DNA of 45,886 nucleotides, from NCBI GenBank assembly GCA_964517185.1, contig CAZFBT010000002.1, positions 1-45,886 on the forward strand. The letters run 5' to 3'. Positions 1 through 30,203 of this stretch are shown here, one piece after another. How positions within the stretch are numbered: the stretch's first letter is position 1; each line of letters opens with the position of its first letter. Origin of the DNA: an uncultured Candidatus Saccharibacteria bacterium. GTDB lineage: Bacteria; Patescibacteriota; Minisyncoccia; Phycocordibacterales; UBA918. Under the pieces are notes generated by a model. The model worked only from the letters and a program-made list of their open reading frames with translations, had not been told where the DNA came from and made no database searches. A program made the translations under genes and the position numbers.

Positions 1-1427
1 GTTGCGGTGAAAATAGTCGTATACGTGTAAGGTACAAATGAAGCAGTTGATGATGCTATAAGACTCCCCGCGAGGGTGAGGGTGCCACCAGACCTGAAGG
101 TGGCATTTGCAGGAAGGTGGAGTGTGCCATCAGTCCCAGAACCAGCATTGCCATGTATGGTTACCGTACCGCCTGGGTCAAAAATCTTCTCTGCCCAAAC
201 ATAGAGCTCATTTCCTGCGCGAACAGAGAGCGCACCAGAGTTTGCGGTGTACTGAATATACGAATTATCATCGCCATCATAGAACGCCATGTTCGCATTC
301 GTAGTCGTAGTGCCAGTCGTTCCTTCGTGACGCACAATGACACGGTTTTGGTAGAGGTGGAGGCCCGAAATGACAGTGTTTGTGGAAGATGCCTTCGTGA
401 AGGTTGTTGCGAGAGTCGATGGGTCGCCGTCAACCCAGATGACAATGGGGGTTGAGGTTGCAATACCATCAGTTCCTATGTTTGTTATAGTGAAGGAAAA
501 TGTGCCATTCGCGGAAACGGTTGTCGTCGAGTGGACAGAGACCGTCGAGGTGCCGATGGCCATCTTTATCGTCTTCGAGGAGCCGGTGAGCGGGGTCAGC
601 CCTTCGTCTGAGTAGAGGACGCCGGAGATGGTGATGGGTGGAAGGGTATAGGTAATACGCACTTCGCCTCGCGCACCAGCACAACCAGCTTGGTTTCCAC
701 CAGAAGCTCGCCTGCCTCCCGAACCGCCGCCGCCGATCGTGCTTCCGGCATTGCAACCACTCGAGCCCGTGAGACCGGCACCTCCGTTACCCCCGCCTAC
801 AGTACCTCCGGTGCCCTGTGTCTCGCCATTGGCCTTTGTACCATTTTGAGCATTTCCCGCAGCACCACCGCCGCCGCCCGATGCGCTCGAGACAACGCCT
901 GCCGCTCCGTTGCCACCGAAGTAGCTCGTGTCCGCAACGTTGCCAGTCGTGGTTGCACCTGCCGTACCGCTCGTGCCTGCGCCTCCAGCGCCGCCACCTT
1001 TCACCAGGAAGGTTGAGCTCGCCGAGAACATCGAATCACCTCCGTTTCCGCCGCCGCCCGTACCCGTACCAGCCAGTCCAGGGCTTCCGACAACGACCGT
1101 ATACGAGTTCCCTGGAGTTACTGAAATCACCTTGAGACCATAGTTGCCGCCTGCTCCACCGCCACCCGAGCCGTTGGCGCCATTTGAACCACCGCCACCG
1201 CCACCGGCACCCCACGCTTCAACCGTCACCGAGGTGACCCCTGCAGGTGCGACCCAGGTGGTCGCACCTGGGGTCGTGTATGTATCTGTGGCTGCATGTG
1301 CAATATGTACCATACTCAAAAACACGGGAAGGAGAACTGCCACAATCATCCAACTGTGCGCAAGGGATACGAAACGGGAGCTTCGTGGTTGGGGCGAGTG
1401 TTCAGTTGTGCAGTGTGTTCCCTGCAT
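1..1427 (-). CDS. Secreted glycine-rich-domain surface protein, N-terminal ~475 codons (ORF runs past the window start)
   Basis: Missing from the ORF track because it has no stop inside the window. Hand translation of the minus strand from ATG 1427 (alternative ATG 1349, directly before the hydrophobic segment) gives ...SLAHSW-MIVAVLLPVFLSMVHIAHA-ATDTYTTPGATTWVAPAGVTSVTVEAWGAGGGGGGSNGANGSGGGGAGGNYGLKVISVTPGNSYTVVVGSPGLAGTGTGGGGNGG... The frame was spot-checked as open at 1021-1427, 601-660, 301-360 and 1-60. The pattern TW.AP.GVTSV.VE.WG.GGGGG...Y.V.VG is the glycine-rich domain of viral or phage-fibre-like proteins (recognised by eye). The Pro-rich + strand ORFs 928..1143 and 1144..1464 are its mirror image. 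Confidence 0.75.
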   Translation of the reverse strand, partial: MQGTHCTTEHSPQPRSSRFVSLAHSWMIVAVLLPVFLSMVHIAHAATDTYTTPGATTWVAPAGVTSVTVEAWGAGGGGGGSNGANGSGGGGAGGNYGLKVISVTPGNSYTVVVGSPGLAGTGTGGGGNGGDSMFSASSTFLVKGGGAGGAGTSGTAGATTTGNVADTSYFGGNGAAGVVSSASGGGGGAAGNAQNGTKANGETQGTGGTVGGGNGGAGLTGSSGCNAGSTIGGGGSGGRRASGGNQAGCAGARGEVRITYTLPPITISGVLYSDEGLTPLTGSSKTIKMAIGTSTVSVHSTTTVSANGTFSFTITNIGTDGIATSTPIVIWVDGDPSTLATTFTKASSTNTVISGLHLYQNRVIVRHEGTTGTTTTNANMAFYDGDDNSYIQYTANSGALSVRAGNELYVWAEKIFDPGGTVTIHGNAGSGTDGTLHLPANATFRSGGTLTLAGSLIASSTASFVPYTYTTIFTA

Positions 1428-1624
1428 GATGACTATTCGGTTAAAGCGCCCCACCCCTGTATGAGCGACGCGAGTCCGGAGAGGGTAACGCGGAGTGTTG
1501 TGAGGGTTGTGTGTGTTTGTTTTCATCTTTTTATGCTCTTTGCGTTTTCCGGTGGTTTTGGTACAATACTTAGACAAGTGCCTTCGGGCTCGCTCCCTTC
1601 GGGGAGCAAAAATTCCGAAAGTCG

Positions 1625-2011
1625 TCAGAGCATATCTCTGGCGGCTTTTCTTAATATCTCAAACGTACCTTTGTTGAGGTAGCCGACCTTTTTGACTAAT
1701 CGCTTTGTATCGATAACTCGCAACTGTGACATAAGCGCAACCGCTTCTTTCCCCTGTACTTCTCCGATTGGTATACGGAGTCGGTGCGAACGTGTCGAGG
1801 TCGTGAGCGGGATAATGAGGCACGTTTCCTGTCCGAGACTCTTGAGGATAACGACTGGCCTTCTATAGTCCTCAGGTGAACCATCCTGCTCAGAACCAAT
1901 GTTTACTCCAAGTGAACACCACCAAATCTCTCGAGTATGAGCAAATAAGACACGGTCGCTGTTGTGTATTATTTTCTTTTTTGTATTCCAGATGTCGAAA
2001 TCTTTTTGCAT
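1625..2011 (-). CDS. PemK/MazF-family endoribonuclease toxin (128 aa), no adjacent antitoxin
   Basis: ORF 1625..2149, trimmed to internal ATG 2011 because the upstream part overlaps the giant gene. The product aligns by eye with E. coli MazF. REIWWCSLGVNIGSEQDG..RRPVVILK matches GDLIWVDFDPTKGSEQAGHRPAVVLS. CLIIPLTTSTRSH matches CLCVPCTTQSKGY. AVALMSQLRVIDTKRLVKKVGYL matches GVALADQVKSIAWRARGATKKGTV. Confidence 0.85.
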   Translation of the reverse strand: MQKDFDIWNTKKKIIHNSDRVLFAHTREIWWCSLGVNIGSEQDGSPEDYRRPVVILKSLGQETCLIIPLTTSTRSHRLRIPIGEVQGKEAVALMSQLRVIDTKRLVKKVGYLNKGTFEILRKAARDML

Positions 2012-2015
2012 ACTT

Positions 2016-5000
2016 TTATGAGGTATTGCTGAGATTGTTAGAATTTTCAGCGGCATCTGCGGTTGTTGTTTCTGGTTCGGGTGTTGGTTCTTCGATGGTC
2101 GGTGTCGGCTCTGGGCTCGCTTCGTTAGAGGCAGGTTCCTCGATCTCATCCGCCGGAGGAACCGTCACCTCTAACGGGGTGTCTCCCATACTTCCCCCAC
2201 CATTCTCTTCCGGCGTAGGGCTCGCCCCGTTAGACGTAGACTCCTCGTCCGAAGTGGGGGAAGTCGTAACGTCTAACGGGGACTGCCTCTGTGCCTGAAG
2301 GAGTGCCTTCAAGGTCGCCTCGTCGACGCACGTATTGCCGACACAGAGCACATCGGTCTTGACCTCCTTTGCTGTAAAACGGTCGGCGACGACCTCGACC
2401 ATCGTGAGAACGCCATCGACGAATCTATTCGCGAGCGCGACAAGGCGGTCGAAGAGAGTCTCATCCTCTTCGCCATTCTCCAGCGTCGAGGTCGCGTTGA
2501 GCACCGCGAGTATGTCTTGCTCTGTGGGGATGATGTAGTCACCGAGCTGCACGAACATGAGTGCTTGGCCGATGTGTACCTCCGTGCCGTCGAGCATCAA
2601 CATCTCAGCTTCCTCGTCGCGGAGCTCGTTGAGCGCTGCAGTGCGCTCGTCTATCGAAATGGTCCTTGGCTTAATGGGGTCGACATCATTTTTCTCGCAC
2701 GGTGCTTCACCCTCCTCATTCCCCGCTCCATATGAGCAACCGTCCTGCGTGCGCGGATCGACGTTCTTGTTCGTTTCGAGTTTCACTTTTACCATGTCGT
2801 CACCGAACTGGTTGAGGTACCCCGCCGAGTATGCTTTCTCACCGTCAAAATCTTCAAGTGCAATACCGACGATGGTTGCGCTCTCCGTGGCCTTCATACC
2901 AATGCCCGGAATGGACGAAAGCGCTATGCGGTCTCCCTTCATGATGGGGCCATTCTCGGTCGAAAGACGAATGGGGACGCGTCCCTTCAGCGCGATGGGG
3001 TATGCGCTCTCGCCCGCTTTGAGAGAGGTGTCGTCATAGCCAAGCGTCATACCCGGCTTCGTCGAGACAACGCCAATGATGTCGTGCGCGCTCGCTTCGC
3101 TCGCGCGCCCAATCGATAACCCGCCCGCAAGCGACACTATTTCCCCCGTTTCAAGTGGCTCGGACGAGAAGTACATTTCCGCGAGGTCGGAGTTGCCGAG
3201 CGCGGAGGTCACTGAACGTATCTGGCCAGTCGTTGTCGAAATACATGAGCCGTCGTTATCGACGCAGATGCCACCGCGCGGAATGATGAGACCGGCATTG
3301 ACCGTGCCGTCGCCTATCGTGGTCGAACCATTCGCCGCAATGATGAATTTCGAGGTACCGGCCACCTGGAGGTCAAAGAACTTTGCTGTTGAGGAGGTGG
3401 CTGCAAATGAACCATTACCATTCCCGAAGTTCATCTGGAGGCCAGTGCCCGTGAAAGCCGAAGTGTCCTGGAAGAGTGAGACGAGTGCAGCAGTCGTGAT
3501 GGAACCAGAGTATGCGCGGAGCGCTTGACCCTGCGTAGTGCCGCGTGTTTCTGCGAAGACACCTGCTGGCACGTATGTGTCGCCCGCGTCGCCCTCCGTC
3601 GTGCCGCGGATGCCGAAGGTGCGCCCGAATGCGTTCACGCCCGTGTTCTCGCCCTTCGTCGTCGTGCCGCGGTGCGCCTGCACTTCAAGTCCGCGGACAA
3701 CGTTGCCGAGCTGACTACTGTCCTGCACGCGAATGATGGAGCCGATGAGCGTCGATGTTGCAGTCGGTGTGTTCACGATGTATGTGTTGTCGCCGTAGTA
3801 GAGCGCGTTCTCGACTGAGTTGTTGAACTGGAAGTATTCCTTCAGACCTGCGGTGAGCGCACCTGAGAGATTGGTCCGATTAATGGTGAGGCCGATTCCC
3901 TCGGGGGTCGTAGAACCTATGGAGACTCGTCCGTCATAGCCGACCCGGAAGAGCGAGCTCGTTGCGAAGGATGCGGACGTCGTCGTCGCGATGTCGAAGA
4001 GCGCCGTCGTCGAGCCGTAGTTGTTCATGATGGAGAACTTTGCCCAGGGGGTCGTTGAGCCGGTCACGACATCGACGTTATATGTTCCCGTACCACCGAG
4101 AACGAGTGTGTTGGAGCGCCCGATTTTTGCTTTTGCGCCGATTACAATGGCGTTCGTAAGGTCACCGGCGAGAACATCACTGTTATCACCGAGTGCAACG
4201 TTATTGGTACCTGTCGTATTGTTTTGGAGTGCGTATAATCCGAGTGCACTGTTGTACGAACCGGTTGTGTTCTGGTAGAGCGCATAGGGACCGAATGCAA
4301 CGTTCTGCTGTCCGCTGACACTGTTTCTCATTGCGTTTTCTCCAAGTGCGATGTTGTACCCCCCATCAAGGTTGCTCAATAATGCTCGTTTCCCCAGTCC
4401 GACGTTCGCATATCCTGTCGTGTTGTTCGCGAGTGAATCAAACCCAACAGCTATGTTTTCATACCCCTCCGTGTTGTCCAAGAGAGCGTTCTTGCCAATA
4501 GCTATGTTGTACGTTCCCGTCATCGGCACCGACGATGACCCGTAGAGGGCCTGGTAGCCAAGGGCGATATTGTCGGTCGCACCCGTTCCGACGAACGAGA
4601 ACGCCTCATTGCCGAGAGCGATGTTGTTCGTGTTCGAGGAGTCGAGTGGGTTCGTCGACGTTGGTCCGCCATTGAGGAAGATGTTCGCACTCGTCGTCGT
4701 GCCGAACATGAGGCGACCATCGCCCCGGAGGGTGAGGAGCGACGAGCCCGAAGACGATGCGAAGCGGAAGAGGTCCTGTGAGCCGGCGGTACCTGTCACT
4801 GCAAGTTTTGCTGATGGTGATGTCGTACCAAGGCCCAGCGTTCCCGCAATATACGCATTGAGGGTCGTCGTCGCGCCGCCGGTGATGGTGAGTCCACCCG
4901 CACCAGTCCCGTCACCGATGGTGGAGCTGGCATTGATGACGATGCCGAGGGTGGTGGTCGTAGGAGTGATTGCGGTGAGTGAGGCATTCCGTATCCAGTC

Positions 5001-8000
5001 CTGTGTCCCCCCTGCACCGGACGCATCACTGCCATCGCAGAGGTCTGCCGAGCCGGTGAGTTGGATACAGAGAGCGTTCGCGGTCGTCTTCGCTCCCCCG
5101 CCGAAGAGATCGATGGAGTTCGAGACCACGAGCGCGGAGGTGGAGGCGGTGCCGACTACAGTGAGGTCGCTGCCGAAGTAGCCGGTGCCAGCGACTGTGA
5201 GGAGACGTGACGGGGTTGAAGAACCGATGCCCACCTTGCCGTCATGCCCAACCCGGAAGAGCGAGCTCGTTGCGTATGATGCCGAAGTGGTCGTCGCGAT
5301 GTCGAAGAGGGCGGTCGTCGAGCCGTAGTTGTTCTGTATCGAGAATTTCGCCCAGGGGGTTGCTGTTCCTATGCTTACGTTTCCAGCAGAAACAGCTCCA
5401 CCATTTCCAAGCTCATTCGCATAGATTATGTTACCGATGGAAAGCTGATTGTTACCAGTGGTTGAAGCTACATTCGCTCGATATCCAAGGATAATATTGT
5501 TATCACCTTGTGTTTGAAGATTCCCTGCAAAATACCCAATACCGATGGTCCCGGTCCCGACATATCCTGAGAGCGCCCAATACCCAAGGACATTATTAAA
5601 TTTACCTGTAGTGTTACTGTATAATGCACCGTCACCAAAGGCGTTGTTTCCTGACCCTGTGGTATTTTCCCACATTGTAGTGTATCCAAATGCATTGTTA
5701 TTGCTTCCAGATACATTCTTTCTCAGCGCACTGTTGCCGATAGCATTATTATAGCTCCCAGTCGTATTGTAATATAAAGGCCCAAGTCCAATCCCAACGT
5801 TATAACCTCCTGAGGTATTAGTGAAGAGGGCCTCATTACCAAGAGCAATGTTTTCATAAGCACTCGTACTGTTGAATAGGGCAGTCTTTCCTATGGCGAT
5901 ATTATTGTCGGCTGTCATCGGCACACTCGACGACCCGTAGAGTGCCTGGTAGCCGAGTGCGATGTTGTTTTGATTGAGTGAGGTCGTCGACGCATACGAG
6001 TACGCTTGGTTTCCAATGGCGATGTTGTTTGAAATGAGTGAGGTGATGGGGGTCGACGTGGGTCCGCCGTTTATGAAGATATTGTCTGCAGTCGTGGAGC
6101 CAAAGGTGAGGACGCCCTTGGTATTTAAGGTGAGAAAGGTGGAGCCTGTGGATGATGCGAATGAGAAGAGTGATGAATTGCCTGAACCGAGGACTCCGAG
6201 TGTCGCGATGGGCGAGGTGGAGCCAATGCCGACGCGGAGATTTTGCACGCCTCCCGAGCCATTCGATTCGCCGTAGACAGTGAGGACTGGGTTCTCGTCG
6301 AGCTGTGCCGAGTAACTCATGATGGTGTTTGCTGGAGCACTCACGACCGGCATGTCGACCCATGAGACGACACCGGCATCGGTGCCGAAGTTCATCGAAC
6401 CAAGATTGAGTTGCGCAATGCTCGTCTCATTTGTCGATGCGTCGTAGTAGAAACCGCCACGACCGATGTCGACCGAGCCATCAGCGAGTATCTCGAAGAG
6501 GATTGCTTCCGTTGAGGACGAGATACGGAAGAGAGAGGCCGTCTGGCCGGCCGTGCCCGTGATTGCAAGGTTCGCGGTCGGCGTCGTCGTACCGAGGCCG
6601 AGGCGACCGCTTGCCGTGAACGTCATGACTTCCGTTCCAGCAGAGAGAAGGTTGAGGATGTCCCCTGCTCCATACTGGGCGAAGGTTGCGGTCGTCGTCG
6701 CGGATGAGGTAGATACGGTGAACAGTGCGCGAGCAGAAGTAGTACCCAGAGATAGGTGCTCGGTCGTGTCGGTGAGGTATGTAATGTTGCCCCCATCGGT
6801 AAAGAGAGAGGTGCCAGACGTTATGCCTAGAGACGAAGTTGCCCGCGTTTCCCACTTCGCGGTGCCTACGTCGTACACGAGCACCGTGCCTGATGCGACA
6901 CCCGAGGTATTGACGTCGGTGAGCGAGGCCAGGGTCGATGCGCCACTGATGCCAAGTGATGACGTGGATACCCACTGCACTCCCGAACCTGTCGTCTGGA
7001 GGACCATGCCGGGGTTCCCTGACGTTGCGGTACGGTCGTAGAGACCTCCCGTGAGGTGCATACCGCCCGCGACCGAGAGGAGCTGGGATGGGGTGGTCGT
7101 ACCGATGCCAACGTTACCACCTGAGAGCACCCTAAGGAGCGTCGCTCCTGAAGATGATGCGACATTGAATACATCTCGAGTCGTCGTACCTACAATCGAA
7201 AGGCTTGCGACTGGTGTGGTGGTACCGACACCAACCGTACTTGATGCACTATCTACATTGAAGAGATTGCCGAAGGTCGCGAAGTTGCTCCGGACCGTGC
7301 TGAGGGAATTGCCAAACGCGAAGAGATTCGAAACGTTATCGAGTGTGTTGCCCGAGCCGAAGAGGAGGGCGTTCGTGATGGTGCCAGTCGCCGTGTTGTT
7401 GTCGCCATAGATGAAGAGTCCGGTCTTATCGCCGCTCCCGAGCATGTTGGTGGAGCCGATGACGCTACCAGTGGTGAGATTGCCGAGGAGTGTGTTGTAT
7501 GAGCCGAAGAGAGCAGAGTCGGTGAGCGTTGCGGTCGAGGAGGCGCTGTTGTACTGGCCGTAGAGGGCGGACCTCAAGATACTTGCCGAGGAAGTGGCAA
7601 GGTTATTATCTCCAAAGAGAGAGGAGAATGCTAAGGTTGAGTCTCCACTAAAAGTATTGGCGGAGCCGTAGAGGGATGTTTGATCAAAATATACGTTTTC
7701 GGAGAAGGTGTTGTTATAACCGTAGAGGGAAGAGTAGGAGAGGCTTGAGTTATTAGGGAAGGTGTTGTTGTTACCATAGAGGGAGGACATGGTGAGGTTC
7801 CCATCGTTTGAAAAGATGTTGGTACTGCCGTAGAGGGAGGAGCCATCTAAGTATGCGCCATCGGAGAAGCTGTTACTGTTACCATAGAGGGAAGATGTGT
7901 AAAAGTAAGAAATGCTCGCCACAGAGTTGTTCATACCGAAGATCATGCTGTGCTCCAATGTGTTCGTCGACGTAAGCGTGTTCTGGCCAGAGATGATGGT

Positions 8001-9281
8001 GCCCAAGCCGAGACCATTCGTCGCGCCGCCGATGCCGATGCTTCCCCCTGCCCCGACACTGAATAGTGTCGTCGTTGCGGTGCCGCCGGTCGTCGAGGCG
8101 ATGGTGAATAGCGGGGTTCCTCCGGGCGTATTCACACTATTCGATATGGTGAGGAGCGAGGATGGCGACGTTGAACCGATACTGACCCTTCCTCCGAAGT
8201 ACGCATTCCCCGTCGTCGTGGCACCGCCGTATATGGTGAGCCCCGTCGCACCCGTACCGCCGCCGATGGTCGAGGAGGCATTCACCACGATACCTGCGGT
8301 CGTCGAGGTGGGGGTGAGACGAGTGCCGTTGTATGACCAGTTCGATACGCCGTCGCCCGAGGCGGTGAGGACGCCGCCAACGTTCGAGAGACCTGAGCCG
8401 AGGAGCGAGGTGAAGTACTGTGAGCCGAGGCCGAGGGTCGTGGTGTAGAGGGTGGATGAAGTAGCGTAAGTGGTTGTCCCCGTAGTGACCGTGAGATTCG
8501 GGAGTGACGAGGACCAAGCGACTCCAGACCCAGTTGTCGTGAGGATCTGGCCATTTGAACCAAGTGAGTATGTGTTGTCGTAGATGCCACCGGTGAGCGC
8601 GAAATCCCCATCGATGGAAAGGTCTGCGATGGGTGTCGTGGTCGCGATGCCTATCTTCCCACCCGCCGTTGCAACAAAGATGGGGTTCACCCCACTGTAG
8701 AGGTCGAAGATGTATCCTGCCCCGTTCTGGGTGATAGAGAGCGCGCTGTCGGGCGTATTGACGACGATGGTCGAGGTTGCGTCGGTACGGACAAACTGGG
8801 TCGAATCGAGTCCATCGAGTGTGTTCGCTGAAAGCGATGTGGATGCGACGAACGCTGCAGGTACCGTCCCAAGGATCTTTCGCGGCGACATTTCCCCGTC
8901 CCACTGCGGGGTTGTCGAGCCTCCTATTTCGACACCGAGGTACAAGGTCTGGCTGAAATCAACACCTGTGAGTGGAGATGTCGAACCGAGCATGACCGAA
9001 AATAGCCCGTTCGTCACTTGCACTTTGTTCGTACCGGTGAGCGATTCGGTCCAGAGTGCGGAGGTCGTCGCGATTGTGGGTGACGTGAGGAGCCAGAAGC
9101 GCATGTTGTACGTTCCGTCTGGAACTGCGACGTTCGTTGAATCCGTTAGCTTACCCTGGTAATTGATCTCATAGTTCGGTGCCGCTTCCGACGTCCTGAA
9201 GAGCAATAAGACAAGCACGAGGAGTGTCGCCGAGAGAAGCGGATACATGAATGTCTGTGTTTTGAAAGAACGAAGGTGCAT
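2016..9281 (-). CDS. Giant secreted tail-fibre-like repeat protein (2421 aa) with C-terminal auto-processing-like module and acidic tail
   Basis: Single uninterrupted ORF. N-terminal signal peptide MYPLLSATLLVLVLLLFRTSEA. The N-terminal domain INYQGKLTD..VPDGTYNMRFWL...LWTE...VQVTNGLFSVMLG...YLGVEIGG...EMSPRKILGTVPAAF is typical of bacterial and phage tail-fibre-like proteins. The motif G.VGIGTTTP...L.V recurs at least 8 times. There is a ~15-aa SSLYG..N.FS repeat block and two blocks of N.A.G..AL..NT.G beta-roll/YadA-head-like repeats. GNSDLAEMYFSSEPLETGEIVSL...IIGVVSTKPGMTLG resembles the phage pre-neck-appendage intramolecular-chaperone (Peptidase G2-type) region. The last ~85 aa are a D/E/P/T/S-rich tail. 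An alternative start at ATG 9248 is possible. Confidence 0.9.
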   Translation of the reverse strand: MHLRSFKTQTFMYPLLSATLLVLVLLLFRTSEAAPNYEINYQGKLTDSTNVAVPDGTYNMRFWLLTSPTIATTSALWTESLTGTNKVQVTNGLFSVMLGSTSPLTGVDFSQTLYLGVEIGGSTTPQWDGEMSPRKILGTVPAAFVASTSLSANTLDGLDSTQFVRTDATSTIVVNTPDSALSITQNGAGYIFDLYSGVNPIFVATAGGKIGIATTTPIADLSIDGDFALTGGIYDNTYSLGSNGQILTTTGSGVAWSSSLPNLTVTTGTTTYATSSTLYTTTLGLGSQYFTSLLGSGLSNVGGVLTASGDGVSNWSYNGTRLTPTSTTAGIVVNASSTIGGGTGATGLTIYGGATTTGNAYFGGRVSIGSTSPSSLLTISNSVNTPGGTPLFTIASTTGGTATTTLFSVGAGGSIGIGGATNGLGLGTIISGQNTLTSTNTLEHSMIFGMNNSVASISYFYTSSLYGNSNSFSDGAYLDGSSLYGSTNIFSNDGNLTMSSLYGNNNTFPNNSSLSYSSLYGYNNTFSENVYFDQTSLYGSANTFSGDSTLAFSSLFGDNNLATSSASILRSALYGQYNSASSTATLTDSALFGSYNTLLGNLTTGSVIGSTNMLGSGDKTGLFIYGDNNTATGTITNALLFGSGNTLDNVSNLFAFGNSLSTVRSNFATFGNLFNVDSASSTVGVGTTTPVASLSIVGTTTRDVFNVASSSGATLLRVLSGGNVGIGTTTPSQLLSVAGGMHLTGGLYDRTATSGNPGMVLQTTGSGVQWVSTSSLGISGASTLASLTDVNTSGVASGTVLVYDVGTAKWETRATSSLGITSGTSLFTDGGNITYLTDTTEHLSLGTTSARALFTVSTSSATTTATFAQYGAGDILNLLSAGTEVMTFTASGRLGLGTTTPTANLAITGTAGQTASLFRISSSTEAILFEILADGSVDIGRGGFYYDASTNETSIAQLNLGSMNFGTDAGVVSWVDMPVVSAPANTIMSYSAQLDENPVLTVYGESNGSGGVQNLRVGIGSTSPIATLGVLGSGNSSLFSFASSTGSTFLTLNTKGVLTFGSTTADNIFINGGPTSTPITSLISNNIAIGNQAYSYASTTSLNQNNIALGYQALYGSSSVPMTADNNIAIGKTALFNSTSAYENIALGNEALFTNTSGGYNVGIGLGPLYYNTTGSYNNAIGNSALRKNVSGSNNNAFGYTTMWENTTGSGNNAFGDGALYSNTTGKFNNVLGYWALSGYVGTGTIGIGYFAGNLQTQGDNNIILGYRANVASTTGNNQLSIGNIIYANELGNGGAVSAGNVSIGTATPWAKFSIQNNYGSTTALFDIATTTSASYATSSLFRVGHDGKVGIGSSTPSRLLTVAGTGYFGSDLTVVGTASTSALVVSNSIDLFGGGAKTTANALCIQLTGSADLCDGSDASGAGGTQDWIRNASLTAITPTTTTLGIVINASSTIGDGTGAGGLTITGGATTTLNAYIAGTLGLGTTSPSAKLAVTGTAGSQDLFRFASSSGSSLLTLRGDGRLMFGTTTSANIFLNGGPTSTNPLDSSNTNNIALGNEAFSFVGTGATDNIALGYQALYGSSSVPMTGTYNIAIGKNALLDNTEGYENIAVGFDSLANNTTGYANVGLGKRALLSNLDGGYNIALGENAMRNSVSGQQNVAFGPYALYQNTTGSYNSALGLYALQNNTTGTNNVALGDNSDVLAGDLTNAIVIGAKAKIGRSNTLVLGGTGTYNVDVVTGSTTPWAKFSIMNNYGSTTALFDIATTTSASFATSSLFRVGYDGRVSIGSTTPEGIGLTINRTNLSGALTAGLKEYFQFNNSVENALYYGDNTYIVNTPTATSTLIGSIIRVQDSSQLGNVVRGLEVQAHRGTTTKGENTGVNAFGRTFGIRGTTEGDAGDTYVPAGVFAETRGTTQGQALRAYSGSITTAALVSLFQDTSAFTGTGLQMNFGNGNGSFAATSSTAKFFDLQVAGTSKFIIAANGSTTIGDGTVNAGLIIPRGGICVDNDGSCISTTTGQIRSVTSALGNSDLAEMYFSSEPLETGEIVSLAGGLSIGRASEASAHDIIGVVSTKPGMTLGYDDTSLKAGESAYPIALKGRVPIRLSTENGPIMKGDRIALSSIPGIGMKATESATIVGIALEDFDGEKAYSAGYLNQFGDDMVKVKLETNKNVDPRTQDGCSYGAGNEEGEAPCEKNDVDPIKPRTISIDERTAALNELRDEEAEMLMLDGTEVHIGQALMFVQLGDYIIPTEQDILAVLNATSTLENGEEDETLFDRLVALANRFVDGVLTMVEVVADRFTAKEVKTDVLCVGNTCVDEATLKALLQAQRQSPLDVTTSPTSDEESTSNGASPTPEENGGGSMGDTPLEVTVPPADEIEEPASNEASPEPTPTIEEPTPEPETTTADAAENSNNLSNTS
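3931..4052 (-). repeat. Intragenic repeat core, copy 2 (pairs with 5239..5360)
   Basis: Hand alignment of the two 122-nt segments, offset exactly 1308 nt, gives 106/122 identical bases. It encodes TPWAKFSIMNNYGSTTALFDIATTTSASFATSSLFRVGYDGRV. Confidence 0.9.
5239..5360 (-). repeat. Intragenic repeat core, copy 1 (pairs with 3931..4052)
   Basis: It encodes TPWAKFSIQNNYGSTTALFDIATTTSASYATSSLFRVGHDGKV. It is part of a larger duplicated module of about 0.9 kb (~5239-6170 versus ~3931-4775). Confidence 0.9.
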
Positions 9282-9287
9282 GGTGTG

Positions 9288-10043
9288 TTATCCGTCACTT
9301 CCGCTACTATCGGTTTCCATCGGCACCATGAGGAACCGATACGCTCTGCCGTCGTGATTTTTGAAGTGCGGGATTATGATGCCGGTGTCCGGATGCTCCG
9401 GATCAAGTGAGACTGACACCTCATCAGAGAAAGAGTCGCGTATCGTCTCGACGGTCGTCGTGTTCATCACCTCGTCGGGGCCTATGACGAGTGCCGTGTG
9501 TGTCGTCGTACCAACAATGACCGCAGGAAGTGCTCGCTCCTCGGTTGCTACCAAGGTAACCTCACGCACGGTCACAGAAGGGGCTGGATTGATGAATTCG
9601 TAGAATGCGAGCGCGAAACGCTCCAGGAATGAGTATTCCGCTTTCGAGACCTGCGCGGTCTGAGAAGTGGTGGTAGTACCAAAATATCCTACTGCTCCGA
9701 TGGTGAGCCCGATCACAAGGATGGCGAGCGTCTCGAGAAGCGCGACAGACGCTTTCGGAACCCGCACCTTGAACTGCTTTTCATTCGCAACAGCGTACGC
9801 ACGAAGTTCTGCCTTACGTGCTTCACGAATGATTTCGCTTCGCGCCTCACGGACTTTCTCAGCATCACTTACAAACCTCGATACCGACTCAGGATCGATG
9901 TACCAACGCTTGCCAACTTTCTGACCCCGAATCCTCCCATCACGAGCGAGCATGATGAGGTAGGTCCCGGTGTACCCAAAACGCCTACCTGCAAGCGCAG
10001 CGTGAATGTACTCGGTGCCGTCTATCGCAAGTGCTTCCGCCAT
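9288..10043 (-). CDS. Membrane-tethered HTH protein (N-terminal excisionase/MerR-like HTH, one TM helix, extracytoplasmic C-domain), 251 aa
   Basis: ORF 9288..10112, trimmed to ATG 10043. The N-terminus MAEALAIDGTEYIHAALAGRRFGYTGTYLIMLARDGRIRGQKVGKRWYIDPESV fits the HTH_17-type pattern (..G.ip..kvG.rW.i). It is followed by a charged helix, then the TM segment VALLETLAILVIGLTIGAVGYFG. Its stop lies 6 nt upstream of the giant gene start. Confidence 0.7.
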   Translation of the reverse strand: MAEALAIDGTEYIHAALAGRRFGYTGTYLIMLARDGRIRGQKVGKRWYIDPESVSRFVSDAEKVREARSEIIREARKAELRAYAVANEKQFKVRVPKASVALLETLAILVIGLTIGAVGYFGTTTTSQTAQVSKAEYSFLERFALAFYEFINPAPSVTVREVTLVATEERALPAVIVGTTTHTALVIGPDEVMNTTTVETIRDSFSDEVSVSLDPEHPDTGIIIPHFKNHDGRAYRFLMVPMETDSSGSDG

Positions 10044-10342
10044 TACAAAAAATTTTAAATTCCATATAATTTTACTAACTGTTTGCGATTTTTTATAAGC
10101 AGTTATCAACACGAAAATATTCCTTCCTGAAGAAAGAATTTCTGGTGGTCCACACTTCTGAGTTTTCTGTTATGCTGTCAATGATTCCCGCGGTCATCCC
10201 CACATCTATCTCAGCAGAACGAAAGCACACGAATGATTTACAAAGATTTGTAGCTCCATACTTAACAACTCAAGACATTCTAGTAACGAATCTTAACCAT
10301 ATATCAAGCAAAATCGAACATTCTAAACACATTTGTATTGAA

Positions 10343-10371
10343 AAATCTCTGAAGTATTACTTCAGAGATTT
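10343..10371 (-). terminator. Rho-independent terminator of gene 10409..11506
   Basis: A perfect 13-bp stem, AAATCTCTGAAGT (10343-10355) pairing with ACTTCAGAGATTT (10359-10371), with a 3-nt loop. On the minus-strand RNA the stem runs into UUUUUC. It lies 38 nt downstream of the stop at 10409. Confidence 0.6.
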
Positions 10372-10408
10372 ATTTCAAAATATAGATATCTCGTTTGCTC
10401 GAGAAAGT

Positions 10409-11506
10409 TCAATCTTTGAGCTTTTGCAACTTTTCGTAGGTGCCTAGAGGGTCAACCGTGTAAGTTGTTGTGGTGATCACTTCGGAATCTCCAGAACCTT
10501 GCTCAAAATGCCATTGTCCTTCGATCAGGAGGCTTCCTATTGCAATGCAGAGTGCTGTGATGAGGGTGCTTGTTAGCATGTACTGAAATCCGCTAGATTT
10601 TGTTTGATTTTGCGGGGTAATAGTTGCTTCTGACTGTGATTTTAGCGTACTGCTACCTTCTGCTGCTTTTGCAATAGGCTTTATCTCAATCTCAGTCACC
10701 GAAGTAGCAACGTTGTGCTGTGGATGCTCTTTTGCGGTAATTGGTTCAGGTGTCGTGTACTCGATTTCCTGCTCGCTGAGTCTATCGAAAAAGTCTTTCT
10801 TTTTATTGATATTTTCAGTTTTCAGTCTTTGGTCCTTCATCTCGTAATCTTCTGTAACCACAACCTTCCGCCCCCCGAGTGATAGCTTCTCTGTTTTTGC
10901 CTCCGTTGTTTCAGGTCGATGTTTAACTATCTTAGGCATGAGAAGAGTGACGCTCGGATCACCGAGATCGTCTGAAACATCAACTACCTTGAGTTTGCCA
11001 GACATGAGTATCTTCTTGCCCTCATTCTGAATGATGTACGGTTCTTTCTCATCTAGATCTATGTTGGTCGTAAACCGAGCCCCTCCCTCAGCGTGGACGC
11101 GAAGGCGCCTTCCTGACACCGGCAGACGTTCCTGCATCTTTTCTCCCTCAGTCTGAAACTTGAGCTTTCGCTCTTTCTCAATAGGAGGTATGAGATCACT
11201 TGGGTCTGTCTCGTAACGAATCTTTATGTTTGTATAGCTATTTTTTGTTTTATTCGACTCCTCTCGTCGACGCTCCTCTAGCATACGCTTTGCTTGCTCA
11301 CGTGCTTTCACCCGAGATAGACGCTTCTTCTCGACACGGTGCGTGCCGAGCTCTTCCATATTTACATACCACGAGCGACCAACGAGATGTGCATCAACAT
11401 GGCCGCCTCTGCAGAGTTGCCCAACGTAATCCGAAGTATAACCAAGATCGCGAGCAGCTCGCGATGCCTTCACATACGTCTTGCCATTAAGAACGAGTAT
11501 CTCCAT
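10409..11506 (-). CDS. Membrane-tethered HTH protein, paralog of 9288..10043 (HTH, long charged region, C-terminal TM)
   Basis: The N-terminus MEILVLNGKTYVKASRAARDLGYTSDYVGQLCRGGHVDAHLVGRSWYVNMEEL aligns with the paralog (G..Y..A....GYT..Y...L.R.G......VG..WY). TM segment YMLTSTLITALCIAIGSLLIEG lies near the C-terminus. ATG 11506 is chosen because of the paralog alignment and a TATACT hexamer 9 nt upstream. The track start at 11524 is a GTG, and ATG 11515 is also possible. Confidence 0.65.
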   Translation of the reverse strand: MEILVLNGKTYVKASRAARDLGYTSDYVGQLCRGGHVDAHLVGRSWYVNMEELGTHRVEKKRLSRVKAREQAKRMLEERRREESNKTKNSYTNIKIRYETDPSDLIPPIEKERKLKFQTEGEKMQERLPVSGRRLRVHAEGGARFTTNIDLDEKEPYIIQNEGKKILMSGKLKVVDVSDDLGDPSVTLLMPKIVKHRPETTEAKTEKLSLGGRKVVVTEDYEMKDQRLKTENINKKKDFFDRLSEQEIEYTTPEPITAKEHPQHNVATSVTEIEIKPIAKAAEGSSTLKSQSEATITPQNQTKSSGFQYMLTSTLITALCIAIGSLLIEGQWHFEQGSGDSEVITTTTYTVDPLGTYEKLQKLKD

Positions 11507-22064: not shown

Positions 22065-23720
22065 CTATTTTCGTGTGATAACACCACGCGCAACGAGAAG
22101 ATCAAGAATGCTCTCGACGAGTTCCTCTGGGGTTGCTTCTTCAGTCTTCAAGATGAGCTCGGGCCGCTCTGGCACCTCGTACGGGTCGTCGATGCCAGTG
22201 AAGTTCTTGATGAGTCCCTTCTTAGCTTTCTCATAGAGACCCTTCGTGTCTCGTCGTGCGCACTCCTCGAGTGATGTGTCGACGAAGAGCTCAATGAACT
22301 CGCCATAGTGTTCGATGCGGTTCCTGACCTGACGACGCGCCTCGCGGTACGGCGCGATGAGCGCCGTGATGACGATGCCACCGTGGCGGACAATCTCACC
22401 GGCAACGAACCCTACTCGGCAGACGTTCTCGTCGCGGTCCTCCTTCGAGAACCCGAGTCCTTTCGAGAGGTGATCGCGGATGACATCGCCGTCAAGGAGC
22501 GTCACCTCGCGGTCCTGGAGCTCCTGGAGCCACGCGACGAGGAGCTGTGCGATAGTCGACTTCCCCGAGCAGGAGAGCCCGGTGAAGAAGAGGCAGACTC
22601 CCGGACGTGAGTCACGCCTCGTGCTCTCGCGGAGTATGTCGATGGATTCCTTAAAGGAGAACCACTCGGGTATCTCCTCTCCCTCGCGGAGACGGCGGCG
22701 GAACTCGGTGCCAGAGATGTTCTCTATCTCATCCTCATCGGTGACCTCACTCGTCGCGACGTAGGCGCCTCGCGTTTTCGAGTACGCGAGCTCATCCGAG
22801 TCGACGATAGTGATGCCGACCTCATCGGCGAACTTGAGTGCGAGCTCGCGCGCCTCATAGGGCCCATAGAAATCCTTACCCTGCTTGTCCTTGCCGGGCC
22901 CCGCATGATCGCGACCAACAATAAAGTGCGTACAGCCGTAGTTCTTGCGGATGATAGAATGCCACACTGCCTCGCGGGGTCCACCCATGCGCATCGCGAG
23001 GGGGAGGAGCGAGAGTTCGGTGAAATCCTTCGCGTAGTTCGTGTGGACGACGTGGTATGTGCGAACACGGGTCACGTAGTCGATGTCGCCTGGTTTCGTC
23101 ATGCCGACGACCGGATGGATGAGGACGGGTGCACCGGTCTTCTCGTGCGCGCGGCGAACGAGCTCGAAGTGTGCTCGGTGCATGGGATTCCGTGTCTGGA
23201 ATCCAACGACCTTGTCCCACCCGCGCTCCCGAAAGAGCGCCTTGAGCTCCGTGGGCGTCCGTCGCCACGCCTTGAAGTCGTGGCGAATGGGTAGCCCGAG
23301 CATCGTCAGCGTCCCGCCGAGGTACACGTCGCCCATCTCCTCCATGAGGTACTGGACGCCGGGGTGTGTCCGGTCCTGCGTCCCATACACCTTGAGCGCC
23401 TCATGGTTCTTGTTCGGCGTGTAGCGCGAAGAGACCGCCATGATGGCGAGCGGGTTCCCGAATGGGTCACAGAGAACGATGCGGTCACCTGCGCCATAGG
23501 GCGAATCCGCCTCGACATCGAGCACAATGGGTATCGGAAAGAGTGAACCGTCCGTGAGCCGCATCGTCTCGACGACCGACTCGTAGTCTTCCTTATCCAT
23601 GAAGCCTCTGACCGGCAGGAACCCGCCAACAAGCATGACCTCAAGGTCATGGAGTGCTCGACCCTTGAGGTTGAGTCGCGGGAGCGTGAGCAGATCGTCC
23701 GTCATAACTGGGTTTGGCAT
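22065..23720 (-). CDS. sat: Bifunctional sulfate adenylyltransferase / adenylylsulfate kinase (PAPS synthase)
   Basis: ATP-sulfurylase motifs QTRNPMHRAHFEL and GPREAVWHSIIRKNYGCTHFIVGRDHAG. C-terminal APS-kinase P-loop FFTGLSCSGKSTIAQLL. The track start at 23774 is a GTG. ATG 23720 (MPNPVMTDD) is preferred because a TATTAT hexamer lies 8 nt upstream. Confidence 0.9.
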   Translation of the reverse strand: MPNPVMTDDLLTLPRLNLKGRALHDLEVMLVGGFLPVRGFMDKEDYESVVETMRLTDGSLFPIPIVLDVEADSPYGAGDRIVLCDPFGNPLAIMAVSSRYTPNKNHEALKVYGTQDRTHPGVQYLMEEMGDVYLGGTLTMLGLPIRHDFKAWRRTPTELKALFRERGWDKVVGFQTRNPMHRAHFELVRRAHEKTGAPVLIHPVVGMTKPGDIDYVTRVRTYHVVHTNYAKDFTELSLLPLAMRMGGPREAVWHSIIRKNYGCTHFIVGRDHAGPGKDKQGKDFYGPYEARELALKFADEVGITIVDSDELAYSKTRGAYVATSEVTDEDEIENISGTEFRRRLREGEEIPEWFSFKESIDILRESTRRDSRPGVCLFFTGLSCSGKSTIAQLLVAWLQELQDREVTLLDGDVIRDHLSKGLGFSKEDRDENVCRVGFVAGEIVRHGGIVITALIAPYREARRQVRNRIEHYGEFIELFVDTSLEECARRDTKGLYEKAKKGLIKNFTGIDDPYEVPERPELILKTEEATPEELVESILDLLVARGVITRK

Positions 23721-23728
23721 AGGGACAG

Positions 23729-23758
23729 ATAATATCGTACTTGTGTGTCTGTATTCAA
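23729..23758 (-). promoter_or_regulatory. Candidate leaderless-type promoter of sat-cysC
   Basis: Minus strand reads TTGAAT (23753-23758), 18 nt, TATTAT (23729-23734), 8 nt, ATG (23720). Confidence 0.45.
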
Positions 23759-23795
23759 CACCCCCTATAACCACCAGGTACTAGGAAAGTTGTAC

Positions 23796-27817: not shown

Positions 27818-27975
27818 GATAATGAACCTATGTTATTAACAAAACATTGAACGATATAATAAAATACCGTTATGTTGAATTATCAAAGTTCAAATTGTGA
27901 ATAAATTCTTTCCCGTACTAAAATGCTGGAATCCGTAGTTACAACGAATGAGTTATATGGTCCAACTAATCACAT

Positions 27976-29247
27976 GTGAATAAGATAAAATCAGCCATCA
28001 CACAATTCCTGCTTTGGAGCCAGAAATACACCAAAGCTGACATGAAGTATGTCGCAAAGAATGGCTCCTGGGTCGTTTTTGGGCAGTTCATGAACAGTCT
28101 CCTATCGCTCGGACTCATGGTTGCCTTTGCAAACTTGCTTCCGAAAGAAACCTTCGGTCTCTATCGGTACATCCTCTCACTCGCTGGCATTCTCAACATC
28201 TTTACTCTTACCGGTATGAACAACGCCGTATCGCGTGCCGTCGCAAGGGGAGAAGAGGGTGTGCTTAGGCCAGCTATTACCTACCAGCTCAAGTGGAACA
28301 TGCTCATGTTCGCGGCTTCGTTTACACTTGGCGGATACTATCTCATACAGGGAGATAGTATGCTTGCTATCTCTCTCTTCGTCCTCGGCTTCTTCGTGCC
28401 CCTAACACTTGCATTTAATACCTACGGTGCATACCTTGATGGAACAAAAAGATTCGGACTTGCAAATATATTGAGTGTGGCATCGACTTTAGTCTATTCA
28501 ACAGGAATGTTACTTTCCCTTACGCTTACTGATAATATTCTCTGGTTAATAATCACTTACTCACTTGCCACATTTGGCTCCTCATTTGTATTTTATGTAT
28601 ATACCGTCAGAAAATTCTCACTCCCAATTTCAGAAAATATAGAAGATACAAAGAAGTACGGGAGAGAACTCACCTACCTGCGCTTCATTGATCCTATTGT
28701 GTCCCAAATCGACAAGATCATTCTTGGAAGTTTTTGGGGTGCGGGTCAACTGGCAGTTTATACTCTTGCCTCGGCAATTCCCGGTCGGGTAATTCTCTTC
28801 CTCAAAAGCTGGATAGCTATAGGTTTTCCAAAATTCTCTGAAAAAACACCGCATGAACTCGATATGGTTTTTTATCGCCGTGTCTTTCAAGGTATGCTAA
28901 TCGGCCTTTTTGTTGCAATTGCATACGTGCTCTCTGCACCGCTTATATTCAAATACCTCCTTCCACAGTATCTTGATGGACTATTCTACTCACAACTTCT
29001 CTCCATAAGTTTTATCTTTGCTATCCCGAACCGCTATACTAGTCTCCTTTTTACCTCACAACGTTGGTCGAAAGTACTTTTTAATCGCACACTCGTCGCA
29101 AGTGGTCTACAAATTGTGCTTTACACACTCTTTGGTATTTTGGGAGGTATTTTGGGCCTTGCGTTTGCATACATCTTAAACACAGGGATCGGCGTGATGC
29201 TAAATATCTTGATGTGGAAGTGGATGAACAAAAGTTTAGCAAAATAG
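27976..29247 (+). CDS. Wzx-like oligosaccharide flippase (MOP superfamily)
   Basis: 423 aa, about 12 TM helices, GTG start. N-terminal pattern ...VAKNGSWVVFGQFMNSLLSLGLMVAFANLLPKETFGLYRYILS is typical of polysaccharide biosynthesis (flippase) proteins. Confidence 0.65.
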   Translation: MNKIKSAITQFLLWSQKYTKADMKYVAKNGSWVVFGQFMNSLLSLGLMVAFANLLPKETFGLYRYILSLAGILNIFTLTGMNNAVSRAVARGEEGVLRPAITYQLKWNMLMFAASFTLGGYYLIQGDSMLAISLFVLGFFVPLTLAFNTYGAYLDGTKRFGLANILSVASTLVYSTGMLLSLTLTDNILWLIITYSLATFGSSFVFYVYTVRKFSLPISENIEDTKKYGRELTYLRFIDPIVSQIDKIILGSFWGAGQLAVYTLASAIPGRVILFLKSWIAIGFPKFSEKTPHELDMVFYRRVFQGMLIGLFVAIAYVLSAPLIFKYLLPQYLDGLFYSQLLSISFIFAIPNRYTSLLFTSQRWSKVLFNRTLVASGLQIVLYTLFGILGGILGLAFAYILNTGIGVMLNILMWKWMNKSLAK

Positions 29248-29306
29248 ACATTACGACAAAATAAAAAATGAATTGGTCTATCGTTATCCGAATCCATACG
29301 AATAGA

Positions 29307-30056: not shown

Positions 30057-30203
30057 AGCAAGAAGTTTTTTCTTTCAGTACATCGACAACGGAATGGGTG
30101 TCGCCGCTAACTCTCATTGTATTATTGCACACAATAGTCTAAATAGCGTCTCAAGTATATAATTAGCCAAAATTTTAATTTATTTTCTTACCCAACTCAC
30201 GTT

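Follow-up and report, generated by a model that had tools for sequence, protein, structure and literature searches.

A conserved giant-fibre gene cassette and a MazF-like gene with a candidate convergent RNA partner in the genome of an uncultured Candidatus Saccharibacteria bacterium

Why should genes for a membrane-tethered helix-turn-helix (HTH) protein, a giant exported fibre and a MazF-like endoribonuclease lie head to tail on one strand, separated by a handful of nucleotides? The question is raised by a stretch of 45,886 nt, hereafter the window, from an uncultured Candidatus Saccharibacteria bacterium (contig CAZFBT010000002.1 of assembly GCA_964517185.1, forward strand, positions 1–45,886). 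The open reading frame (ORF) listing and direct reading confirmed the three co-directional minus-strand genes, referred to here as HTH-TM (TM, transmembrane), the giant and MazF, at the positions given in an earlier note on this DNA: HTH-TM ends in TAA at 9290–9288 and is separated by 6 nt (CACACC) from the ATG of the giant at 9281, which in turn ends in TAA at 2018–2016, 4 nt (AAGT) ahead of the MazF ATG at 2011. That note took the trio for an insulated, translationally coupled operon. Our analysis points to a different composition: the region is probably a composite of a conserved fibre cassette and a separate, inserted toxin module consisting of MazF and a convergent small RNA (sRNA). Of our results, this RNA is the most novel and the one with the best support, and it is presented before we turn to the fibre.

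The DNA located 3′ of the MazF stop codon is conserved across unrelated genomic contexts and carries on the opposite strand a constant succession of elements, namely, a promoter, 7–9 nt, 5′-ACAAGUG, hairpins A and B, an A-rich spacer, hairpin C and a U-tract (window coordinates in Table 1). The convergent promoter is of the σ70 type and, in the strict form TTGACN-N15-18-TAnnnT, is present in 44 of the 55 other loci. Hairpin A is either GCC-UUCG-GGC or the swapped GGC-UUCG-GCC; hairpin B has a 5–9 bp stem whose sequence differs altogether from locus to locus, capped by a GNRA or UUCG loop; hairpin C, of 10–11 bp, overlaps the final 6–7 codons of MazF together with the stop and, flanked by A- and U-tracts, forms a bidirectional terminator common to the ends of the sRNA and of MazF. 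The covariance model (R1) matches the window copy with 84.6 bits (E = 5e-22), the sole strong match in 45.9 kb, and the predicted RNA folds at −36 kcal/mol (z = −5.5). Consequently, the GC hairpin downstream of MazF, previously regarded as closing the operon, is hairpin B of a plus-strand sRNA gene rather than an operon terminator. More divergent MazF genes (loci L012, L019 and L022a) are accompanied by a shorter element, which comprises the convergent promoter, hairpins A and B and a U-tract.

The predicted structure covaries extensively. In a sequence-only MAFFT alignment, 90.6% of the cells are paired, compared with 40–58% when the partners are slid, and 17 pairs show double changes; upon realignment with the covariance model, 93.5% of the cells are paired, compared with 41–61%, and 20 pairs show double changes. 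None of 500 shuffles reached the observed value in either case. RNAalifold run on the raw MAFFT alignment missed hairpin B because its stem length varies, which was solved by specifying the structure explicitly and realigning with the covariance model. The orientation of the promoter assigns the RNA to the strand opposite MazF, as do the structures themselves: UUCG or GNRA sequences occur in 24 of the 33 hairpin-B loops when read on the sRNA strand vs one of 33 on the MazF sense strand, hairpin C holds 60 G·U pairs vs 17 A·C pairs, and the sRNA strand folds more stably in 35 of the 43 copies. On the MazF sense strand hairpin C is weak (−11.2 vs −19.2 kcal/mol), so that read-through from MazF into the next gene, which encodes a glycine-rich (Gly-rich) protein, is plausible. 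No Rfam family matched the sRNA, either at the gathering threshold or at a lax E-value. An attC-like recombination site was also considered for the 3′ element and was ruled out by the promoter, the UUCG/GNRA loops and the terminator. At two loci (L004:19225–19425 and L012:11140–11318) the called MazF ORFs, of 185 and 199 aa, read through the sRNA gene and thereby acquire artefactual C-terminal tails ('KTDPLRGPQVPNG...'); at the ends of these ORFs lie a second conserved hairpin and a U-rich tract (CGGAGACGGAACTCCG..TCTTCTTCG).

The same element might instead be a bidirectional terminator or insulator furnished with stabilizing hairpins, or might encode an antitoxin peptide of 17–21 aa (MPSGSP.../MASASP...). 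Hairpin C with its A- and U-tracts does have the make-up of a textbook bidirectional terminator, and an NTG triplet lies 4 nt past the predicted sRNA start in all 43 copies, in a frame without stops over at least 10 codons in 41 of them, in an organism that apparently uses Shine-Dalgarno-less or leaderless initiation. A dedicated and conserved σ70-type promoter would, however, be purposeless for a mere terminator. As for a peptide, the would-be products range from 2 to 80 aa in length, hairpin A sequesters the G of the NTG, and the paired double substitutions that keep the stems change the would-be residues non-conservatively. Moreover, in L046 and L064 (a third copy, L066, has the L064 sequence) a UUCG-to-UUAG loop change stops the frame at codon 3, while MazF and the hairpins are intact. 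We thus regard the terminator and peptide explanations as quite unlikely and continue with the element as an sRNA gene.

The protein opposite which this sRNA is encoded appears, by its residues, to be a catalytically intact solo endoribonuclease. It matches PF02452 (E = 1.4e-14; 54.6 bits vs a cut-off of 23.1) and the PHROG family 'MazF-like growth inhibitor' (E = 1e-15), as well as MazF7, EndoA and MazF in the PDB, and belongs to a clade of at least 555 clusters at 55–72% identity to the window protein, nearly all of them precisely 128 aa in length and all from Patescibacteria wherever the source names the protein. In 120 of 120 clade members, as in the window protein, the equivalents of Escherichia coli MazF residues R29, T52 and E24 (R51 and T70 corresponding to the first two) are conserved without exception; the assignment as a MazF-like toxin is thereby upheld. 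No adjacent gene for a small protein antitoxin (MazE/PemI, of AbrB or RHH fold), which in type II modules usually lies upstream, was found in the contexts examined, the upstream neighbour being the giant, rpsR, HTH-TM or non-homologous DNA with a private promoter. Members of the same clade also reside after rpsF-ssb-rpsR, convergent with efp and with no small neighbouring ORF. The view of MazF as antitoxin-less therefore holds for protein antitoxins but not for RNA, given the conserved convergent sRNA, which is probably the missing antidote of the toxin. HTH-TM was itself considered as the antitoxin, since MazF directly follows it in three loci, and was ruled out because most genomes with HTH-TM lack MazF, and all 65 sampled MazF loci lack HTH-TM. 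A pattern-limited scan of viral contigs returned no relatives of the window MazF, and literature searches within the library available turned up no account of a MazF-family toxin paired with an RNA.

As an antitoxin, the sRNA could act in a type I-like manner, by antisense pairing at the shared terminator followed by decay of the mRNA, or, alternatively, in a type III-like manner, by binding the MazF protein. Several type I toxin–antitoxin (TA) systems employ convergent antisense RNAs that overlap the toxin transcript at the 3′ end, including txpA/RatA and bsrG/SR4 of Bacillus subtilis and par of Enterococcus faecalis, in which RNA I and RNA II share a bidirectional terminator. Likewise, the toxin and sRNA genes described here are predicted from their sequences to be convergent and to overlap nowhere but at their 3′ ends and in the terminator, the sRNA possesses a strong promoter of its own, and the module is compact, mobile and multi-copy. 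By contrast, the toxin is a soluble 128-aa endoribonuclease of the MazF family rather than a small hydrophobic membrane peptide, and its mRNA is apparently leaderless. MazF is a textbook type II toxin, and the window protein shares the fold and catalytic residues of MazEF/PemIK toxins, but an upstream MazE or PemI gene is missing from the contexts examined. The resemblance to type III systems lies in the RNA being the only conserved partner of the toxin, and the ToxN toxin of ToxIN has a Kid/MazF-like fold; however, ToxI is an upstream, same-strand array of tandem repeats that the toxin processes, whereas the RNA described here is single-copy, downstream and on the opposite strand.

Does MazF nevertheless form one system with the fibre genes, co-expressed with them as a growth brake or cargo, as the earlier note proposed? 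A scan of one genome per GTDB species yielded 17 fibre loci including the window, all in Patescibacteria metagenome-assembled genomes (MAGs; Kaiserbacteria, Paceibacteria, Minisyncoccia and some auto-labelled Saccharibacteria) except for the partial match L021. The pairing of HTH-TM with the giant recurs in 16 of the 16 assessable loci but the trio does not: MazF-like genes are present in four of the 17 loci, the window included, and sit in three different places (downstream of the giant in the window, separating HTH-TM from the giant in L012 and L019, and behind the second HTH-TM copy in L004), being missing from the other 13. The copies at the other fibre loci are just 36–41% identical to the window MazF and thus more diverged from it than the copies found in unrelated contexts, which indicates independent acquisitions. 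Reciprocally, none of the 65 metagenomic MazF loci, sampled by protein, carries homologues of the fibre, HTH-TM or Gly-rich genes, and the clade is at home beside rpsF-ssb-rpsR and efp. The module also brings its own sRNA and terminator, plus its own promoter elsewhere, and MazF has no signal peptide and hence is not cargo. What speaks for a joint system is the 4-nt stop-to-start gap, the lack of a private −10 box in the window MazF and the recurrence of small RNase genes at the locus (MazF-like in the window, L004, L012 and L019; NYN in L011; remnants of MazF downstream of the giant in L027 and of the sRNA in L011), as well as Vogelbacteria, in which two tandem MazF copies lie ahead of genes for a 1229-aa CARDB surface protein and a pilin. 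Weighing these observations, we consider a dedicated three-gene system very unlikely.

The composite reading offers another account of the close junction. In L020, 10 nt separate the giant stop from the Gly-rich start, at the exact site of the ~490-bp insert in the window, which is consistent with a ~0.5-kb selfish toxin module having inserted precisely between the fibre and Gly-rich genes. Where MazF stands alone, its ATG is preceded by a −10 box at a distance of 8–12 nt, and the mRNA should thus be near-leaderless. In the window this private promoter would have been lost, and MazF is probably expressed through transcription running on from the fibre gene, so that local co-expression of fibre and toxin may be a consequence of insertion rather than a designed system. 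In the window, two almost identical 12-mers border the module (2009–2022 and 1524–1538, minus strand), the left one being CATAAAAGTATG and the right one CATAAAAAGATG, and short repeats of a similar kind border it in L012 and L019; these may represent a target-site duplication or, equally, a shared start-codon context. Tandem MazF copies are found in five of the 65 sampled loci, and tandem MazF-sRNA arrays were noted in L060 (three copies), L048 (two), L022, L030, L042 and L045. In L011 (10760–11376), a remnant of the MazF-associated hairpin element follows immediately upon the HTH-TM stop, with no MazF, and is succeeded by a gene for a 171-aa NYN-domain RNase and then by the giant; this slot appears to turn over small RNase genes.

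Unlike MazF, HTH-TM accompanies the giant in every assessable locus. The order GatB, U371-like, HTH-TM, giant, in which U371 denotes a paralogue of HTH-TM, is kept in all 16 assessable species-level loci, as determined by tblastn and ORF maps, with an AT-rich spacer of ~350–550 nt separating the U371-like and HTH-TM genes. In GCA_964593375.1 (L004) the unit is duplicated in tandem as [HTH-TM1-giant1] and [HTH-TM2-MazF-giant2]; the 757-nt spacer between giant1 and HTH-TM2 (L004:17270–18025) is full of short palindromic repeats or repeats resembling miniature inverted-repeat transposable elements (GTCATTCCGGCC..CCGGAATGACA, TTAGC runs). In L021 (10001–16900) the HTH, the juxtamembrane helix and the TM segment are fused to the fibre in a single protein of 2299 aa that ends in Peptidase_S74 and has neither the C-terminal domain of HTH-TM nor the NYQGKL N module; this predicted fusion is a Rosetta-stone link between HTH-TM and the fibre. 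The gene next to it encodes a prepilin, and the MAG is labelled Rhodospirillales. From the strict adjacency, the co-duplication and the fusion, we infer that HTH-TM is the membrane base or sensor of the fibre. The two genes make up a genuine, conserved cassette that has yet to be characterised and whose design is related to that of mosaic adhesive trimer (MAT) and phage fibres; literature searches found no description of a giant-fibre cassette in the candidate phyla radiation (CPR). The earlier idea of a sensor-regulator serving an attachment fibre fits the conserved pairing, at least where physical and functional linkage is concerned.

The giant begins with a signal peptide (aa 1–34, judged by eye), followed by an N module (~aa 35–380) that is 42–65% identical across loci, a middle part made of variable repeats that cannot be aligned between loci, and a C module (~aa 1755–2400) with 49–68% identity. 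The repeats match PHROG tail-spike and virion structural profiles (1e-30 to 1e-38). Searched as a profile (alignment A2), the C module matches the Bdellovibrio MAT fibres 8ond (Bd2133; E = 6e-6) and 8ol4 (E = 0.004) along a GNVGIGTTTP..L.V.. repeat, and the autochaperone of phi29 gp12 (3gqh; E = 0.004); a single-sequence search of the PDB with the C module gave no match, so that the profile was needed. Against Pfam and NCBIfam the whole giant produced nothing useful, and its pieces only a near-threshold match to Peptidase_G2 (PF11962; E = 4e-5, 23.5 bits vs a cut-off of 25, partial); several homologues carry a precomputed PF11962 match. The AlphaFold2 model of the C module has a core with predicted local distance difference test (pLDDT) values >90 over aa ~2033–2163, for which the top Foldseek matches are phi29 gp12 structures (3suc/3gqh; E = 3e-4 to 5e-4, probability 1.0). 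The start of the released phi29 fragment, DFAEYF, aligns with DLAEMYF of the giant, where D2032, E2035 and Y2037 are invariant among 35 sequences, and on this alignment autocleavage is predicted at S2031|D2032. The claim that the giant is phage-fibre-like with an auto-processing type of C-terminus is thereby supported, whereas the accompanying statement that it maps to no described system no longer holds, given its resemblance to the MAT fibre superfamily and phi29 gp12. Pfam detected no S74 domain, the chaperone being of the G2 type. A polymorphic toxin of the contact-dependent inhibition (CDI)/Rhs type was ruled out, with no toxin domain past the chaperone and no export signal on MazF. The giant also contains an internal duplication of ~300 aa (window 5211–6170 and 3903–4730, minus strand; aa ~1040–1357 and ~1520–1793), in which, for instance, NNYGSTTALFDIATTTSAS[Y/F]ATSSLFRVG.DG.V.IGS.TP is present twice, and such repeats probably explain the contig breaks inside the gene in many relatives.

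HTH-TM, the start codon of which agrees with the starts of all homologues (alignment A1), has 49 close clusters; a profile search extends the family to 225 representative clusters at E < 1e-30 and to 2350 at E < 1e-10. As modelled (Table 1), its N-terminal domain is a winged HTH of the excisionase/MerR class, with Foldseek matches to Xis (4j2n; TM-score 0.69) and BldC (6amk; 0.75), both at a probability within 0.96–0.99, and to RacA, TraN and RdfS (TM-scores of all five within 0.5–0.75), in agreement with the earlier description of a single-pass membrane protein with an HTH of this type. At the sequence level HTH-TM falls below all Pfam thresholds (PF12728 HTH_17, 16.5 bits vs 27; TIGR01764, 14.4 vs 28.8), and Pfam gave neither a Trans_reg_C match nor an XRE-type HTH plus DUF4115 match. 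The paralogue U371, encoded by the first gene of the cassette, starts with an HTH, which a long charged linker connects to a C-terminal TM helix, and ends in a short tail on the outside; it has no Pfam match and is related to the N-terminal domain of HTH-TM (BLASTP, E = 3e-11). Its homologues, of 300–370 aa, begin with MEVLVLDGK, which corresponds to window position 11506, and are sited between GatB and HTH-TM in related loci. PADLOC returned no matches for MazF, HTH-TM or U371.

We propose that this cassette, found in Patescibacteria of the Paceibacteria/Kaiserbacteria type, encodes HTH-TM and then a giant, Sec-exported trimeric fibre expressed from the cassette's own promoter. The N module of the fibre would be retained on the cell and followed by the variable repeat shaft, and the C-terminal autochaperone would cut itself off after trimerisation. 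The extracytoplasmic C-terminal domain of HTH-TM would hold the N module non-covalently, making HTH-TM the membrane base of the fibre, while the MerR/Xis-like HTH on the cytoplasmic side would link the fibre with DNA, whether by feedback on the cassette promoter or as a tether. By analogy, the target of this HTH may be DNA, for feedback of the ToxR kind or for tethering, or else a protein, which is the case for RodZ. One could also envisage HTH-TM and U371 purely as ToxR-like one-component transcription factors that sense through the C-terminal domain and regulate the fibre operon without anchoring anything. The topology, with an inward N-terminal HTH, a single TM helix and an outside domain, would suit such a role, as would the resemblance of the fold to the DNA-binding proteins Xis, BldC and MerR, the long helix after the HTH, reminiscent of the MerR dimerisation helix, and the conserved AT-rich, partly palindromic promoter block, a possible operator. 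Yet the palindrome is made of TATA repeats and constitutes weak evidence, and the HTH of RodZ, in a similar architecture, is known to be able to bind protein instead of DNA. Furthermore, the fusion in L021 argues for physical continuity, HTH-TM and the fibre duplicate one-to-one, and the signal peptide of the fibre is cleavable, with no other obvious anchor in the protein. A purely regulatory role is hence unlikely in our judgement, albeit a serious contender, and we retain HTH-TM as the candidate base of the fibre.

Comparison with known systems shows both similarities and differences. MAT fibres comprise a signal peptide, a conserved β-rich N-domain of ~130 aa, a shaft of trimeric β-helix/prism repeats and, at the C-terminus, an S74 chaperone or an alternative adhesive tip; according to Caulton et al. 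(2024; PMC10769870), their N-domain has to attach to some element of the cell surface that has yet to be identified. The giant has the same layout, that is, a signal peptide, a conserved N module, a long, repetitive trimer-type shaft (GNVGIGTTTP-like) and a C-terminal autochaperone, with one end conserved for retention on the cell. It differs from MAT fibres in being two to three times longer, in its chaperone, which is of the phi29-gp12/G2 type rather than S74 (although the L021 relative has S74), in its host, a monoderm-like CPR bacterium, and in the dedicated membrane HTH partner that adjoins it, the MAT anchor being still to be found. With phi29 gp12 (3gqh/3suc; Peptidase_G2 in MEROPS and Pfam) the giant shares the fold and the cleavage-site motif, but the Pfam score lies just under the curated cut-off, the domain is part of a cellular giant protein, and ~390 residues follow the cleavage site, including an acidic, Pro-rich tail. 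The architecture of HTH-TM, namely, a cytoplasmic HTH, a juxtamembrane helix, a TM segment, a variable linker and a small β-containing outside domain, parallels those of ToxR/CadC and RodZ; however, its HTH is excisionase/MerR-like and neither of the OmpR type (ToxR) nor of the XRE type (RodZ), two paralogues (HTH-TM and U371) occur in tandem, and HTH-TM is strictly linked to a fibre gene.

How the cassette is delimited and expressed differs from the initial description. A Shine-Dalgarno sequence is missing at both gene junctions, and likewise at essentially all 28 genes of the window, so that its absence, which had been taken as a sign of translational coupling, is no evidence thereof. Leaderless or Shine-Dalgarno-independent initiation may be widespread in the lineage, as suggested by these starts and by the −10 boxes close to the ATG of MazF elsewhere. 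The terminator-like hairpin after the U371 gene, the AT-rich spacer that contains it (10044–10408; 365 nt, 33% GC) and the TAAAAT hexamer 8 nt ahead of the HTH-TM ATG are all present as described. That hexamer is not the conserved promoter element, however: in an alignment of 18 upstream regions from 17 loci, the −10-like element falls at ~−32 to −27, at a constant distance from the ATG, within a promoter block formed by the last ~40 nt of the spacer (Table 1). Nor are the three genes an insulated unit, as the upstream U371 paralogue belongs to the cassette and the gene for the Gly-rich protein, a further member of the surface-protein cluster, follows as a fourth co-directional gene, beginning ~100 nt after MazF; in L020 and L028 a Gly-rich protein gene comes directly after the giant. 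DnaA-box-like motifs (TTATCCACA, TTATACACA, TGTGGATAA) were seen ~45–50 nt upstream of the HTH-TM −10 element (window 10086–10125, minus strand; upstream regions of L002–L020), and GTCAA-N5-12-TGTGGATAA occurs just past the sRNA promoter in many MazF modules (L022, L030, L039, L070, L072); they might mark a promoter or regulator site shared within these genomes.

Table 1. Coordinates of the features of the fibre cassette and the MazF-sRNA module in the window (aa, residue numbers in HTH-TM)
Feature	Position	Strand	Description
Gly-rich gene	1-1526	-	Start 1526 or 1427, runs off left window edge; signal peptide + PF21722 Gly_rich_2, E=7e-13; six-frame translation
sRNA promoter	1540-1567	+	-35 TTGCGT 1540-1545, 16-nt spacer, -10 TACAAT 1562-1567
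Predicted sRNA	~1574-1654	+	~80 nt, three hairpins
Hairpin A	1580-1589	+	GCC-UUCG-GGC
Hairpin B	1592-1607	+	UUCG loop
Hairpin C	1621-1645	+	Overlaps MazF stop and last 6 codons
sRNA U-tract	1646-1654	+	Follows hairpin C
MazF-like gene	1625-2011	-	128 aa, ~25-aa N-terminal extension (KDFDxWN)
Giant	2016-9281	-	2421 aa; translation
Peptidase_G2-like intramolecular chaperone/autocleavage domain of giant	2787-3245	-	aa ~2013-2165 of the giant; phi29-gp12-type
HTH-TM	9288-10043	-	251 aa
HTH-TM winged helix	aa 1-50		β-β-α-α-β-β, cytoplasmic; AlphaFold2 pLDDT >95
HTH-TM long helix	aa 51-91		AlphaFold2 confidence high over most of length
HTH-TM TM helix	aa 97-123		AlphaFold2 confidence moderate to high
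HTH-TM linker			Variable, disordered; AlphaFold2 confidence low
HTH-TM C-terminal domain	C-terminal ~70 aa		Conserved extracytoplasmic small α/β domain (SIRDSFSDEVSVSxDP...YRFLMVP); pLDDT ~70
Conserved promoter block of HTH-TM/fibre unit	10044-10085	-	Consensus AAAAACCTATAAAATATAAGTACATTTTnGTTTTTT then ATG; -10-like TAAAAT ~10070-10075
Intrinsic-terminator-like hairpin and U-tract after U371 gene	10343-10371	-	12-bp stem, -18.5 kcal/mol, z=-7.1
U371	10409-11506	-	Paralogous membrane-tethered winged-HTH protein, first gene of conserved cassette

The genes flanking the locus are chromosomal housekeeping genes (GatB, Obg, SecA, MurB and a Wzy protein with tetratricopeptide repeats). Further along the window (24842–27817, minus strand) a 991-aa protein combines an α/β-hydrolase domain of the LCAT lipase/acyltransferase type with a FIMAH domain and is probably another large secreted protein near the fibre locus. 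At ~27.8 kb the GC content falls from ~55% to ~43%, and the low-GC part (27800–45886) is a polysaccharide biosynthesis island that includes a flippase, a TylF methyltransferase, a carbamoyltransferase and glycosyltransferases. The window also encodes a fused ATP-sulfurylase/adenosine 5′-phosphosulfate (APS) kinase and a CysQ-like phosphatase (22065–23774 and 33944–34702), and in L027 a sulfotransferase gene follows the giant; the sulfur-activation genes and the sulfotransferase may point to sulfated surface glycans.

Several of our observations weigh against the composite reading or the roles proposed within it. The open NTG frame would allow for a peptide product of the sRNA gene, and both the sRNA and the gene transcripts of the window are predictions from the DNA sequence alone. 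RNase genes (MazF-like or NYN) or their remnants are present in ~6 of the 17 fibre loci, seemingly more than random insertion would produce, and some functional link to the locus is possible; the missing −10 box and the position of MazF right behind the giant make co-expression with the fibre possible in the window as well. On the side of the cassette, the contact between HTH-TM and the fibre is deduced from the order of the genes, their joint duplication and one fusion, the latter found in a MAG that bears the label Rhodospirillales; the C-terminal domain of HTH-TM is modelled with moderate confidence only, and the likeness of the N module of the giant to that of MAT fibres is one of layout, the homology match being a sequence-level one that covers the repeats.

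A joint, more far-reaching reading, which we put forward tentatively and with more doubt than confidence, is that a large clade of Patescibacteria MazF proteins has swapped MazE for a convergent, structured sRNA of ~80 nt, yielding a new hybrid TA class in which a type II toxin is controlled in the manner of type I or type III, and that HTH-TM is the missing anchor of MAT- and tail-fibre-like fibres, wiring their engagement to DNA. If true, a MazF clade the only conserved partner of which is a covarying convergent sRNA would blur the boundaries between type I, II and III systems. Such a pairing would explain many of the 'orphan' MazF annotations in CPR genomes, and the sRNA would add an RNA family absent from Rfam 15. 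There are also consequences for annotation, in that gene callers reading through the sRNA gene give false C-terminal extensions of MazF, as in L004 and L012, and the absence of Shine-Dalgarno sequences is unusable as evidence of coupling in these genomes. CPR organisms are thought to live attached to their hosts, and the fibre cassette represents a conserved candidate attachment organelle with a candidate anchor or sensor. HTH-TM is thereby a candidate answer to the question posed by the MAT fibres of Bdellovibrio, namely, what holds the N-domain of the fibre on the cell.

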